NCBI GenBank assembly: GCA_964426755.1
Contig: CAYRRR010000001.1
Span: 58,946-122,945 of the forward strand
Length of the DNA: 64,000 nt
Origin: an uncultured Candidatus Saccharibacteria bacterium
Lineage (GTDB): Bacteria > Patescibacteriota > Saccharimonadia > Saccharimonadales > JAGQNJ01
Reading direction: 5' to 3'
The position numbers and the translations under genes are program-made. The first letter of the stretch is position 1. Each line of letters opens with the position of its first letter. The notes under the pieces were generated by a model, which saw only the letters and a program-made list of their open reading frames with translations, was not told the DNA's origin and made no database searches. This document shows positions 22,320 to 55,780 of this stretch, piece by piece.

Positions 22320-22396
22320 GGGCGCTTAGCTCAGCTGGCTAGAGCACTTCGTTTACACCGAAGGGGTCGGGGGTTCGAGTCCCTCAGCGCCCACCA
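22320..22396 (+). tRNA. tRNA-Val (anticodon TAC), CCA encoded
   Basis: Acceptor GGGCGCT/AGCGCCC. Anticodon stem CTTCG/CGAAG with loop TTTACAC. T arm GGGGG-TTCGAGT-CCCTC. TATAAT box at 22299-22304. Confidence 0.93.
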
Positions 22397-22406
22397 TACA
22401 AATAGT

Positions 22407-22429
22407 CCATCCGAAAGGATGGGTTTTTT
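22407..22429 (+). terminator. rho-independent terminator after tRNA-Val
   Basis: CCATCC-GAAA-GGATGG hairpin followed by G and T6. The outer TACAAA/TTTGTA pairing extends the stem. Confidence 0.7.
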
Positions 22430-22560
22430 GTATGGGTATTGTCTAGGCTTAGCCTATGATCCCCCGGGTCGGGGTGAGAGCTGCCTGTGGCAGTTTGCAA
22501 GGAAGTCTTCTCTTGAAAGCTTGCTTTCAAAGATGAAGTTTCGGGCCTGTCGAATCTAGG

Positions 22561-22582
22561 TCGAGTCCCTCAGTGTCTACTA
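22561..22582 (+). repeat. decayed direct copy of the tRNA-Val 3' end (T-loop to CCA)
   Basis: TCGAGTCCCTCAGTGTCTACTA versus tRNA TCGAGTCCCTCAGCGCCCACCA. The first 13 nt are identical and the remaining 9 nt differ only by four C-to-T transitions. Confidence 0.7.
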
Positions 22583-22672
22583 TAAAGTACCGATCATTGT
22601 TAACCGGTTTTTAAGTACAAAATTTTAAAATTTATAATTCTCGACTATACTCGTAATTATAAATAAAGGAGT

Positions 22673-23824: not shown

Positions 23825-24000
23825 TAATTGTAATTTCACCCCTGATCCGCTATTATAAGTTTGCCTTATTCTTAATTTAGGGGTCCCCAACTTGAGGGGA
23901 TTCAAGTTGGGAAAAGGTACTGACTATATTTGTTGTATTGTGGTTTTTTGGAAGCTTTGCTTTCAAAAAGCTTCGATATCAAATATTTACGCAGTGATGT

Positions 24001-24076
24001 GGCGCTTTAGCTCAGTTGGTAGAGCAGAGGCCTGAAGAGCCTTGTGTCCCCAGTTCGAGTCTGGGAGGCGCCACCA
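24001..24076 (+). tRNA. tRNA-Phe (anticodon GAA), CCA encoded
   Basis: Acceptor GGCGCTT/AGGCGCC. Anticodon stem GAGGC/GCCTT with loop CTGAAGA. T arm CCCAG-TTCGAGT-CTGGG. Confidence 0.95.
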
Positions 24077-24221
24077 TAAATATTTTGTAACCTTTCGGCT
24101 AGAAAATATTTATCATGTTCACCAAGCGCGAACTGGATAGCTACGAAGCAGCCAGTTCGTTCGTAAGAAACTATCGCAGGAGCTTGCTCCGAGAAAGTTT
24201 AGAAGCGTGCCGAAGGCAGCC

Positions 24222-24237
24222 CTGGAAGGCGCCACCA
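24222..24237 (+). repeat. direct copy of the tRNA-Phe 3' end
   Basis: CTGGAAGGCGCCACCA versus tRNA CTGGGAGGCGCCACCA, 15 of 16 identical. It ends 161 nt after the tRNA 3' end. Confidence 0.75.
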
Positions 24238-24271
24238 GTTTAAAAAAATAAGGGCGGGATGCCCTTTTATT

Positions 24272-25666
24272 ATGTCTGAAATTGAGCAACTACGACCAAG
24301 AATAGTCGGTACTGAGCTTGAGTTTGGGGTAGCGTTCGAGTTAAGAGGCGGCTATCGTCATCTAACTTCACCGTACAAACTTTTACTGAATAATATACCG
24401 ACAAATGTTATATCACATCGTAATAATCCAACCTCCAATGATTATTTTTTAGAAAATGGTGGTCGTTATTATCTGGATATGAGACATCATTGGGAGTATG
24501 CGACTCCAGAATGTGCTACTTTTGCTGACGCTGTTACGTATGACATTGCGGGTGAAGATTTTATTTGCGACCATTTTAGCTCACCGCTTGCTCAAGAAAT
24601 TTTCGAAAATGCTGGTATATTTAAGAAAGTTTCTGATCATAGTGAAGGTCAGACGCAGACTGCTGGAGCGCACGAGAACTATCACACGGATAGAATTAAT
24701 CTTGGATTTGAATATAACAGGAAAAAAAGTCTTTTTGTAGCTGGTCTTGCATCTCATCTAATAACTCGCTCGGTTTTTACTGGTGCTGGTTCAGTAGATG
24801 CCGATGGGGTGTTTCATAAAACTCAAAAGTTGCGCACCCTCACACGAACACAAAGCGGAAGCACCACCAGCGACAAGCCCATAGTTAACACACGTATTGA
24901 GTCTCTGGCAGAAGGGGAGCATGAGCGCGTGCATATAATCAGCGGGGATCCAAACATTTCACCGTGGGCTGGATGGATGAAGCTTGGCACCACTAGCCTT
25001 GTTCTGCGATTACTGGAGCATAGTTCATTTCCCATAGAAGCAGTTATTGCTAATGAGCGCATGGTAGAAGCGGCTGTCGCAATAGGCAGTACTGCTGCGC
25101 TTGACACATTGGTTGTCATTGAAGGTGGAAAAAGCGCCACGGCATTAGATGTTCAAGAAATAGTATTTGATGCTGCAGAAGAGCTAGGCAGAAAATATGA
25201 GTTACCACCTGAGGAGTACGCAGTTTTGGGCGAATGGGAAGCCGTAATACAAGATTTACGTCAAGACCCAGAGAGGTGCATGGACAGAATCGATTGGCTT
25301 TCTTGCCGTTACGTTATCGAAAGTGCCGTTAATGCAGAAGAAAGAAAAAAACGAGACCTCGGGTACACTATGCTATACCCCGGTGGTGGTTTTGGACTTA
25401 AACTGAGGGATCGTAGCAGATTTAAGATGACACCTACCAGGGAAGAGATTGTTCGCGCACGAACCACTCCGCCTGCTGACACTCGGGCTGTGCTAAGAGG
25501 AGAGGCTATACGCCAATTTAAAATGAATAATGTAAATGGAGTAATCGGCTGGGATTTTGCGCGTAACGACACTAAGCCTAAAAAAATTGCCAGAATTATG
25601 TTTAATGACCCTTATGACCATGATGTCAGTAGGCTAAATAAGTGGCTTAAGGCTACTCTTAGCTAA
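24272..25666 (+). CDS. Pup ligase / Pup deamidase family protein (PafA/Dop-like carboxylate-amine ligase)
   Basis: 464 aa with family blocks in canonical order: RIVGTELEFG, ENGGRYYLDMRHHWEYATPEC, GAHENY, PIVNTR, RVHIISGDPNIS, MKLGTTSLVLRLLE, ATALDVQ, IDWL and TPPADTRAVLRGEAI. No SD seen. Confidence 0.82.
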   Translation: MSEIEQLRPRIVGTELEFGVAFELRGGYRHLTSPYKLLLNNIPTNVISHRNNPTSNDYFLENGGRYYLDMRHHWEYATPECATFADAVTYDIAGEDFICDHFSSPLAQEIFENAGIFKKVSDHSEGQTQTAGAHENYHTDRINLGFEYNRKKSLFVAGLASHLITRSVFTGAGSVDADGVFHKTQKLRTLTRTQSGSTTSDKPIVNTRIESLAEGEHERVHIISGDPNISPWAGWMKLGTTSLVLRLLEHSSFPIEAVIANERMVEAAVAIGSTAALDTLVVIEGGKSATALDVQEIVFDAAEELGRKYELPPEEYAVLGEWEAVIQDLRQDPERCMDRIDWLSCRYVIESAVNAEERKKRDLGYTMLYPGGGFGLKLRDRSRFKMTPTREEIVRARTTPPADTRAVLRGEAIRQFKMNNVNGVIGWDFARNDTKPKKIARIMFNDPYDHDVSRLNKWLKATLS

Positions 25667-55525: not shown

Positions 55526-55547
55526 TGGCTGGGGATGAGGGATTCGA
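55526..55547 (-). repeat. perfect 22-nt direct copy of the tRNA-Gln 3' end (T-loop to CCA)
   Basis: Plus-strand TGGCTGGGGATGAGGGATTCGA at 55526-55547 is identical to 55707-55728, the 3' end of tRNA-Gln. Confidence 0.85.
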
Positions 55548-55675
55548 CTTACCTTCGGCGAGCCCACAACTTTTGCTTTGCAAACAAGTTCGCAAGTGAA
55601 GATTGCTTTGCGACATGTCACCGACATGTTTCACCCCGATCACTTTCGTTCGGGTGTTCAAATTGCTGAGCTAAG

Positions 55676-55699
55676 AAAAAACGAGCCCCGAAGACTCGC
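55676..55699 (-). terminator. rho-independent terminator immediately downstream of tRNA-Gln (minus strand)
   Basis: Minus-strand GCGAGUC-UUCG-GGGCUCG imperfect hairpin followed by U6, which is the A-run at 55676-55681 on the plus strand. Confidence 0.6.
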
Positions 55700-55706
55700 C
55701 TTTTCT

Positions 55707-55780
55707 TGGCTGGGGATGAGGGATTCGAACCCCCGATCATGGGACCAGAACCCACTGCCTTACCGCTTGGCTAATCCCCA
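55707..55780 (-). tRNA. tRNA-Gln (anticodon CTG), CCA encoded
   Basis: The reverse complement folds with acceptor TGGGGAT/ATCCCCA. U1-A72 and G73 are Gln identity elements. Anticodon stem GTGGG/CCCAT with loop TTCTGGT. T arm GGGGG-TTCGAAT-CCCTC. Confidence 0.93.

Follow-up and report, generated by a model that had tools for sequence, protein, structure and literature searches.

We describe a family of short, gene-less units that lie directly beside tRNA genes, beginning with a 64,000-nt stretch (the window) of contig CAYRRR010000001.1 from an uncultured Candidatus Saccharibacteria bacterium. Eight tRNA genes were found in the window by ARAGORN and Rfam. Three of the eight, those for Val, Phe and Gln, are trailed by a repeat of their own 3' end, which closes a unit; the remaining five carry no unit. 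The three genes and their repeats are the following.

22320-22396, + strand: tRNA-Val(tac), the intact target or host gene of the Val unit (ARAGORN; Rfam tRNA, 67.3 bits)
22375-22398 and 22561-22584, + strand: direct repeat of tRNA-Val, 20 of 24 nt identical, the four mismatches being C-to-T (repeat search)
24001-24076, + strand: tRNA-Phe(gaa) (ARAGORN; Rfam)
24061-24076 and 24222-24237, + strand: direct repeat of tRNA-Phe, 15 of 16 nt identical (repeat search)
55707-55780, - strand: tRNA-Gln(ctg) (ARAGORN; Rfam)
55707-55728 and 55526-55547, - strand: direct repeat of tRNA-Gln, 22 of 22 nt identical (repeat search)

A degenerate pattern drawn from the three units matched the window three times, at exactly these units, where no match was expected by chance. 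The initial annotation had pointed out the tRNA-Val repeat with its four transitions, a terminator at the start of the unit and several short hairpins. The repeat is real, the terminator scan placed a stem and T-run in the expected position, and the named hairpins were all found in the sequence. The unit had also been called hairpin-rich. The folding-energy z-scores of the three units (-1.45, +0.86 and -0.94) are no different from those of shuffled sequence, so this property alone is no evidence of function, and the support for structure comes from covariation across relatives and not from stability.

Anatomy of the tRNA-Val and tRNA-Gln units

The Val unit consists of the following parts, among which H1, H2 and H3 are the hairpins of a module designated M.

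22397-22436, + strand: terminator palindrome brought by the unit, TACAAAT-AGTCCATCC-gaaa-GGATGGGT-TTTTTGTA; stem at 22404-22425 plus T-run (terminator scan)
22433-22461, + strand: leader, a degenerate antisense copy of the 3' third of the tRNA (read from the sequence)
22462-22474, + strand: hairpin CCCCG-GGT-CGGGG (sequence compared with the tRNA)
22475-22562, + strand: module M, Val copy (match to covariance model R1 at 22461-22572, 109.8 bits, E = 5e-33)
22478-22485/22489-22496, + strand: H1, CTGCC-TGT-GGCAG
22502-22520/22523-22542, + strand: H2, capped by CUUG, apex CTTGAAAGC-TT-GCTTTCAAAG
22544-22551/22555-22562, + strand: H3, GAA loop, two apical pairs broken in the Val copy, GCCTG-TCGAATC-TAGGT
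22561-22582, + strand: distal repeat, tRNA-Val nt 55-76 from the T-loop to CCA, overlapping the last two bases of H3 (repeat search)

The TGGG that follows the terminator palindrome is the complement of the ..CCCA/CCA end of the tRNA, and the same layout (a, stem, loop, stem, a', TGG) was also seen in units of the same type (type A, defined below) at other loci. Within the leader, GGGTATTG (22434-22441) can pair with CAGTGTCT of the distal repeat (22572-22579) through four Watson-Crick and four G.U pairs. Six transitions set the Val leader and distal repeat apart from the tRNA, and all of them preserve pairing (four G.U pairs and one double change from G-C to A-U), which in this single case hints at selection on the leader/repeat helix. 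The loop and 3' arm of the hairpin at 22462-22474 (22466-22474, GGGTCGGGG) are a sense copy of tRNA-Val nt ~44-52, that is, of the variable loop and the 5' strand of the T-stem, and an equivalent antisense/sense hairpin is visible in most type A units. The sequence GCCTG-TCGAATC-TAGGT, first taken to be T-arm-like, is present but is read here as a degenerate H3 of a family-wide fold. A promoter scan gave no promoter-like site within the Val or Phe unit, with sites only outside them.

The Gln unit has the same parts in the same order on the opposite strand.

55526-55706, - strand: tRNA-Gln unit overall (sequence; R1 match at 55536-55647, 102.9 bits; repeat 22/22)
55706-55674, - strand: terminator palindrome
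55654-55650/55639-55635, - strand: leader, CCCGA paired with TCGGG
55633-55546, - strand: module M (R1 match)
55630-55623/55619-55612, - strand: H1
55606-55588/55585-55566, - strand: H2
55564-55557/55553-55546, - strand: H3
55547-55526, - strand: exact 22-nt repeat of tRNA nt 55-76

The alignment of the Val and Gln units has no gaps over ~96 nt, with compensatory differences in the hairpins; the Phe unit, treated below, was barely recognised by the Val/Gln model.

Fold and covariation of module M

Module M, a three-hairpin module of ~90 nt, is common to the Val and Gln units. H1 has 8 bp and an NGU triloop, H2 is long and bulged with a CUUG cap, and H3 has 8 bp and a GAA triloop; the junctions UGAG.., GCAAGG and GAAU are invariant. 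A structure was written on an alignment of 26 copies (A2) and the covariance model R1 was built. In A2, 95% of the cells pair, changes on both sides occur in 22 of 38 pairs, and 134 cells are compensatory, against 9-19 in controls with the partners slid by 1-3 columns. In shuffles the observed value was not reached for four of five measures; the fifth, the count of further pair types, was reached by 6 of 500. With 113 distinct copies, in an alignment that was fitted to R1 and so biases the count toward structure, 96.1% of the cells pair, double changes occur in 31 of 34 pairs and 669 cells are compensatory (67-94 in controls).

Two G.U pairs of H3 are kept in ~100 of 111 and in 98 of 110 copies. 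These pairs would be A.C mismatches on the complement, and the fold therefore belongs to the tRNA-sense strand. The fold of M is strand-specific and under selection on that strand. The module also has many invariant unpaired bases.

Distribution of the module

One genome per prokaryotic species was scanned with a DNA pattern of M, and at least 119 loci were listed. Among the matches listed, the module loci were all titled Saccharibacteria or Saccharimonadales except one ('MAG: bacterium', L079), and the other loci were chance matches in coding DNA of other phyla. A tighter second pattern gave 77 further metagenome loci. R1 recognised ~115 copies in the Saccharibacteria and metagenome loci and, as a control of its specificity, none in ~85 loci of other phyla (716-kb search of 97 loci). 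The pattern had no match in 2.9 million IMG/VR viral contigs, and M was matched neither in INPHARED phages nor in PLSDB plasmids. Rfam 15 gave no family match for the window, the canonical copy or ten loci: only tRNAs reached the threshold, and the matches by E-value were at chance level. No published description of these units turned up in full-text literature searches.

Known ribozymes and motifs were compared by eye. The elements of the hammerhead (CUGAUGA/GAAA, GUC site) and of the hairpin ribozyme (AGAA/GUC) were not consistent across copies, and readings as group II or spliceosomal-like GUGAG..AG ends, a k-turn or a double T-loop gave no consistent fit either, in agreement with Rfam.

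The family of M is a previously uncatalogued and apparently mobile set of gene-less inserts of ~180 bases beside Saccharibacteria tRNAs. The suggestion of the initial annotation that the window holds members of a family of miniature tRNA-targeting elements was borne out to the extent that the Val and Gln units belong to one large, gene-less, tRNA-associated family.

Two mirror forms of the unit

The copies fall into two forms, which keep different parts of a partial tRNA copy next to M. Type A, with 40 classified copies including the Val and Gln units of the window, runs from the intact tRNA through a terminator palindrome, an antisense leader, an antisense/sense hairpin and M to a copy of tRNA nt 55-76, with 72-89 nt between the tRNA and M. 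The descending arm of its terminator continues into TGG.., the complement of the ..CCA end of the tRNA; the leader is a degenerate antisense copy of the 3' third of the tRNA, and the short hairpin joins antisense and sense copies of nt ~46-52. Type B, with 22 classified copies, lies upstream: the original promoter is followed by a copy of tRNA nt 1-52, M, UCGAAUCC, an antisense T-arm, a -10 box and the intact tRNA, with 22-46 nt between M and the tRNA. In the type B unit of L104 the 5' copy agrees with the tRNA over all 52 nt (nt 1-52). The antisense piece copies 10-15 nt of the real T-arm and follows variant T-loops, as in L058, where ATCGAACCCC matches a UUCGAUC T-loop. Some tRNAs (in L194, L124 and L129) carry a type B unit upstream together with a type A unit downstream. 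The targeted tRNAs serve no fewer than 11 amino acids (Gln, Val, Arg, Gly, Lys, Glu, Ser, Ala, His, Tyr and Leu).

The 5' flank of M corresponds to tRNA nt ~44-52, that is, the variable loop and four of the five T-stem bases, and the 3' flank to U55, C56, G57, A58 and onward, with U55 and C56 drawn into H3. With these flanks, M replaces G53-U54 of the partial tRNA copy. When M was removed in silico from 96 copies, no genuine complete tRNA resulted, and an intact tRNA was always found alongside. No case of a tRNA interrupted by M and in need of splicing was seen (0 of 96 copies). A clean insertion at a shared GT dinucleotide was also rejected, since every copy is one G and one T short of the prediction.

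In many minimum-energy folds of the single strand of type A, a stem between leader and distal repeat encloses M, which branches out. Over 35 type A units, counted at leader positions aligned to the antisense of the tRNA 3' end, the leader and the distal repeat form 65% Watson-Crick and 7% wobble pairs, with 28% mismatches.

Units also occur in tandem, each closing with a tRNA repeat (L111, L121, L028 and L133), and nested insertions were found too. In L194 (590-1260) the displaced 5' pseudo-tRNA has acquired additional insertions of the TGAGA type, one site being just behind nt 5 and the others within the D- and T-loops. Similar insertions in the anticodon loop were seen in L058 (6180-6260) and in a pseudo-tRNA upstream of tRNA-Arg in L088, and some of these begin with the TGAGA.. 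of M. Because the nested insertions sit in D-, anticodon- and T-loops, insertion favours tRNA loops.

Small segments bearing open reading frames (ORFs) lie in or near the arrays and close with short copies of tRNA 3' ends (TGGCCCTCCA or ..CTCAGCCA), at L133 200-830, at L116 4190-4400 and upstream of position 779 in L069; their arrangement suggests that gene cassettes may also accumulate at these tRNA ends. Contigs L001-L003, Logan short-read contigs of the window's own strain, break inside tRNA 3' ends beside units. Conserved tRNA sequence or repeats may fragment assemblies at unit loci.

Empty sites in a syntenic relative

The closest syntenic locus fetched was L004, whose Pup-ligase-family protein is 47% identical to that of the window and whose gene order is tRNA-Val, Band_7, a small gene, tRNA-Phe, the Pup-ligase-family gene and tRNA-Gly. 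Comparison of the orthologous tRNA loci showed empty sites at both tRNA-Val and tRNA-Phe. In L004, tRNA-Val is followed directly by a terminator and then by Band_7. Immediately after tRNA-Phe come GGGCGGGAGCCC, TTTTTATT and the ATG that starts the Pup-ligase-family gene, and neither place has a unit. The window counterpart of the L004 tRNA-Phe terminator (GGGCGGGATGCCC, then TTTTATTATG) sits after the Phe distal repeat.

24250-24266, + strand: ancestral tRNA-Phe terminator, AAGGGCGGGATGCCCTT and T-run, now beyond the distal repeat (terminator scan)

This position implies insertion of the ~161 nt that separate the repeats, along with a new tRNA 3' end. Presence and absence are reciprocal, as L004 carries a unit behind tRNA-Gly(gcc) while tRNA-Gly of the window has none. 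Since the Val and Phe sites of L004 are empty, the units are insertions. No gain or loss at strain level was seen at tRNA-Gly, the close relatives of L004 all keeping the same unit. A protein search of genome contigs with the Pup-ligase-family protein gave no match. The nearest named homologue of this protein of the window, PafA2, assigns the organism to Candidatus Saccharimonadales.

Several further observations concern the same loci. In Saccharibacteria tRNA terminators (the native empty site of L004 at 530-575 and many type A loci) the descending arm, TGGTGG for example, tends to complement the ..CCACCA of the tRNA, which may bear on tRNA 3' processing or termination independently of the units. 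The Pup-ligase-family protein (PafA/Dop-like, PF03136) is encoded at 24272-25666 of the window and at 1945-3324 of L004, where a WhiB-family protein is encoded nearby (1466-1705); PafA/Dop-like and WhiB-family proteins are better known from Actinobacteria. L202 (5240-6010) and L203 encode the same Pup-ligase-family protein as L201, which shares at least 90% identity with that of L004. In both, the Pup-ligase-family gene is immediately preceded by a type IV secretion/conjugation block (TraG-like, TraC-like, PrgI, TrbL/pilin and PLD-nuclease genes). This block closes at ..ctagagtCCACCA, followed by the native tRNA-Phe terminator. The same position in other strains (L201 5760-6010, L004 1700-1950) holds Band_7, WhiB and tRNA-Phe. 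By its layout the block resembles a conjugative element that has integrated at the very 3' end of tRNA-Phe and has a repeat of only ~6-10 nt.

The tRNA-Phe unit and related modules

The unit behind tRNA-Phe contains the following features.

24077-24237, + strand: tRNA-Phe unit overall
24078-24111, + strand: leading hairpin
24129-24136/24152-24159, + strand: antisense/sense T-arm hairpin, CGAACTGG with CCAGTTCG
24167-24200, + strand: H2-like hairpin, apex GGAGC-TT-GCTCC
24208-24218, + strand: H3-like hairpin, TGCC-GAA-GGCA
24222-24237, + strand: repeat CTGGAAGGCGCCACCA, beginning in the 3' strand of the T-stem (repeat search)

A GTAAG junction is also present. R1 matched the Phe unit end-to-end (24113-24234) at 7.9 bits with filters off and did not match it with default filters. 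No close relative was found in any fetched locus other than contigs of its own strain. The recurrence of one layout behind tRNA-Phe and tRNA-Gln, as described initially, thus holds as a layout, and the Phe unit is no close relative of the others. By eye it has the family layout, and it is a weak relative of M that has diverged or decayed.

Related but distinct modules lie behind other tRNA-Phe and tRNA-Glu genes. Saccharibacteria tRNAs are also trailed by no fewer than two other module families that share the order of terminator palindrome, antisense T-arm, hairpins and 3' repeat of the tRNA, one beginning with GGGATTCGAACGG and another containing CGCGCAGAAGCTYRCTTCGAGCATGA; the loci are L111 (190-310), the 3' sides of tRNAs in L097, L058, L087 and L126, L152 and L184 (tRNA-Phe), and L169 (tRNA-Glu). 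As other modules trail tRNAs in the same way, the phenomenon is broader than one module. In the module-bearing loci, a sample biased by their having been chosen for containing M, a 3'-end repeat lies 40-320 nt downstream of 44 among 129 distinct tRNAs, and M is present in 33 of these 44 cases.

Hairpins were also noted upstream of tRNA-Phe (window 23880-23975). One, CCCAACTTGA-gggga-TTCAAGTTGGG, holds the T-loop-like GGATTCAAG, and a second is GAAGCTTTGCTTTCAAAAAGCTTC.

23946-23969, + strand: H2-apex-like hairpin upstream of tRNA-Phe (R1 with filters off, 8.5 bits, model positions 51-73)

A hairpin here had been called related to the units, which holds for the H2 apex and for nothing beyond it. 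These hairpins may be debris of an older or decayed unit, or a coincidence in the case of the H2-like one.

Search for linked enzymes

The 1585 neighbouring ORFs were clustered and Pfam was run on the top clusters, which gave housekeeping genes only. The recurrent neighbours were ABC transporter, response regulator, FAD oxidase, histidine kinase, P-type ATPase, VanY, Band_7, VIT1, FtsX and MurB, and no linked recombinase or reverse transcriptase was present among these clusters. Across the 669 kb of module-bearing loci a tyrosine-recombinase motif turned up once, in a Xer-like ORF at 1.6 kb from the nearby copy. The window had been said to lack an integrase, and a crude regex check of its ORFs agrees, with no integrase motif and none of the HxLRH type. 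The recombinase check, made by regex and partial Pfam, was non-exhaustive.

Origin of the units

Within the data searched and among the matches listed, the unit family is found only in Saccharibacteria. The units always keep an intact tRNA, occur in two mirror forms, accumulate and decay, and encode nothing. We regard it as probable, with moderate confidence, that a unit is a copy of a family of gene-less, non-autonomous insertion elements of ~160-200 bp, or of a mobile RNA gene, that act as a folded single strand beside tRNAs. Insertion would leave one intact, expressed tRNA gene and push a duplicated tRNA fragment outward, namely the 3' part in type A, as in the window, and the 5' part in type B. 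The unit supplies a ready-made terminator (type A) or promoter (type B). Such an element is or was presumably mobile and would act as a folded single strand of either RNA or single-stranded DNA (ssDNA), in which the sense and antisense tRNA pieces could form a duplex mimicking the tRNA or its gene, with M branching at the T-loop. Entry may proceed by recombination within the tRNA sequence, by a catalyst encoded elsewhere or by the host. The many invariant unpaired bases, the conserved G.U pairs and the insertion into tRNA loops are points for an RNA strand. For ssDNA it counts that C-GAA-G and C-UU-G loops also give stable DNA mini-hairpins, and that the sense-plus-antisense mimic of the target recalls CTX-phage attP(+) and integron attC. 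Judged from sequence, a small RNA with a tRNA-like 3' end is possible.

Several points weigh against this reading. The units are not linked to any transposase, integrase or reverse transcriptase, and the mechanism of mobility is one that we infer. No excised form, transcript or recent transposition event was observed. Module identity is 0.71 within a genome and 0.73 between genomes, and since copies within a genome are no more alike than those between genomes, there is no sign of recent bursts; the variable positions, however, are mostly covarying stem bases that are probably saturated, which may hide a burst signal and limits clustering tests. With the modules grouped by tRNA type, identity was 0.745 vs 0.739 (permutation p = 0.23) and the nearest neighbour had the same amino acid in 20 of 69 cases; it was 0.740 for both when they were grouped by type A or B. 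Given the probable saturation, these tests are no more than a weak argument for frequent retargeting. Pairing between leader and repeat is imperfect, more than a quarter of the positions being mismatched as given above, and the counts of flanking hairpins, a crude count with both types mixed, were barely above those of shuffles. The Phe unit is a loose fit to the family, and the larger covariation count carries the bias already mentioned. To these is added that M is strongly conserved, in sequence and structure, between very divergent hosts, their Pup-ligase-family (PafA-like) proteins sharing only 47% identity, which would suit a host-beneficial RNA as well.

A bolder form of the favoured explanation, which we put forward tentatively and hold to be possible but doubtful, is that M represents a new class of mobile element, or of mobile RNA gene, whose recognition of tRNA loops is structural and whose inserting form is a folded single strand. 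Target tRNA sequence would then be copied into the element at every insertion, in sense and antisense. The active part would be M, either as a ribozyme or as the handle, made of RNA or ssDNA, for a host recombinase, ligase or reverse transcriptase yet to be discovered. If true, this would be a structure- or RNA-guided system of tRNA-gene insertion outside the known transposon, integrase and intron families. M adds a structured nucleic-acid family with more than 100 copies and strong covariation, absent from Rfam, in an under-studied phylum. Single-copy essential tRNA genes are occupied without being killed, by duplication of either half of the tRNA and with an own terminator or promoter brought along. 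If the proposed mobility is real, bacteria with tiny genomes would harbour a trans-acting machinery that targets tRNA loops and is potentially useful as a tool. The tRNA fragments and pseudo-tRNAs left by units can mislead tRNA annotation, prediction of att sites and islands, and assembly in genomes of the candidate phyla radiation (CPR).

The main rival, which we judge unlikely, is that M is a resident non-coding RNA that benefits the host and is tied to tRNA biology. It might take part in tRNA transcription, processing or quality control, act as a decoy that draws off tRNA-targeting nucleases, or bind at the tRNA elbow; the partial tRNA copies would be functional, and new copies would arise rarely, through local duplication and gene conversion from the adjacent tRNA. 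Besides the conservation of M just mentioned, this agrees with the strand-specific G.U pairs, the fixed geometry relative to the tRNA, the terminator or promoter supplied by the unit, the old and divergent copies within a genome with no bursts, and the missing link to a mobility enzyme. However, presence is patchy and reciprocal between syntenic genomes, units occur at just three of the eight window tRNAs, and the occupied tRNA varies by genome. Some copies have decayed (the Val copy with its broken H3 and decayed repeat, and the Phe unit), module similarity is independent of tRNA type, and the tandem arrays and nesting in displaced pseudo-tRNA pieces resemble parasitic accumulation.

Mobilisation by reverse transcription appears improbable. 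It would start from M RNA joined to a tRNA half, or from pre-tRNA read-through copied with template switching or snap-back, and the hybrid complementary DNA (cDNA) would recombine with a tRNA gene by homology. Insertion in tRNA loops (always the T-loop, with the D- and anticodon loops in displaced pseudo-tRNAs) fits such a route, as does the RNA-like fold with conserved G.U pairs. Sense and antisense copies turning at hairpins would be a product of snap-back synthesis, and the two mirror outcomes would be 5'-half-M and M-3'-half. Neurospora mitochondrial retroplasmids reportedly integrate at tRNA genes. Yet no reverse transcriptase was found near any copy among the neighbouring ORFs, one not having been sought genome-wide, and the units have no poly-A or other hallmark of retro-elements. 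The terminator and leader are collinear and homologous between units, which speaks for movement of whole units and not for fresh cDNA chimeras, and nothing found bears on catalysis.

The last alternative, that the units are scars of integrase-borne islands or prophages which lost their cargo and left attL- and attR-proximal DNA, is largely refuted and very improbable: more than 60 classified units at at least 11 tRNA types share one collinear structure of 160-200 bp with fixed spacing, which independent deletions would not reproduce, M adjoined no integrase in the non-exhaustive check and was not found in the viral, phage or plasmid collections, and neither the mirror type B nor the covarying single-strand fold is explained. 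The deleted-island reading was rejected on these grounds, and with it the proposal of the initial annotation that three independent near-total deletions had taken place, since the units are collinear at many tRNAs and genomes, with a tRNA-to-module spacing of 72-89 nt and no adjacent integrase. What speaks for scars is the classic repeat of the tRNA 3' end, with the tRNA restored by element sequence and the old terminator after the distal copy. Large elements also use these sites in the lineage, as in the strain related to L004 whose conjugative block ends in ..CCACCA at the tRNA-Phe position, and in L133 an ORF cassette with a 10-nt tRNA-end repeat lies between two units. The repeat of the conjugative block, however, has ~6-10 nt at the CCA end, against 22 nt from the T-loop in the units. 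The underlying attL/attR interpretation is right in that the units were inserted and that the tRNA 3' end is repeated at their boundaries. In its plain version it misses four features, namely the placement of the module at the T-loop position of a partial tRNA copy, the mirror form with a duplicated 5' part of the tRNA, the antisense copy of tRNA sequence in each unit, and the covarying, strand-specific fold of the module.

Comparison with known systems

Among known kinds, integrative elements that target a tRNA gene and restore it come closest to the units. As to membership of a named family, every defining feature tested failed except the tRNA repeat. Like tRNA-targeting P4-type prophages, integrative and conjugative elements (ICEs), tycheposons and the CIMEs, derivatives of such elements that lack cargo, the unit inserts in a tRNA gene and restores the displaced segment; the displaced fragment is repeated directly from the T-loop onward, tandem arrays build up, and the presence of units varies between relatives. 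In the window the inserts are bounded by the tRNA-segment repeat (20/24, 15/16 and 22/22) and the tRNAs are intact. A full-length phage, ICE or plasmid with the same att-flanking DNA was not found in IMG/VR, INPHARED or PLSDB. Unlike these elements, the units have ~180 bp and not kilobases, no recombinase was found in or near them, and they possess a covarying three-hairpin fold at the T-loop, a mirror 5' form and antisense tRNA copies.

With miniature inverted-repeat transposable elements (MITEs), REP/REPIN, Correia and IS200/IS605-derived PATE elements the units share that they are short, gene-less, hairpin-rich, multi-copy and dependent on functions in trans. In contrast to MITEs they lack terminal inverted repeats, target tRNAs strictly and have target-specific flanks, and no transposase family was identified for them. 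There is no target duplication of fixed length (16-22 nt are repeated in type A, 52 nt or more in type B), and a unit is bounded by a terminator palindrome at one end and by a tRNA repeat at its opposite end. Introns of tRNA genes (bacterial group I introns in the anticodon loop, archaeal loop introns and split tRNAs) are likewise structured elements at a tRNA loop position, but M never interrupts a complete tRNA (0/96), is far smaller than group I or II introns and has no Rfam intron or ribozyme match.

Integron attC cassettes and the CTX-phage attP(+) used by the host XerCD are folded single-strand recombination sites. The units resemble them: the structure of M is kept on one strand while the stem sequence varies, small and sometimes ORF-less units are arrayed at one site, target-like sequence is present in both directions and could fold into a duplex mimic, and the enzyme would be encoded elsewhere. 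The compensatory changes with strand asymmetry in the 26- and 113-copy counts are those of a structured single strand. Unlike attC, the R/L box consensus was not present by eye, the module junctions being G|TGAGAA and GG|TCGAAT. No integron integrase or attI turned up with the units, no search having been aimed at IntI. The target is a tRNA gene and not attI or dif, and M has invariant single-stranded bases typical of functional RNAs. For an RNA route the analogy is with retroplasmid integration at tRNA genes, and folded single-strand recombination sites offer a mechanistic analogy as well.

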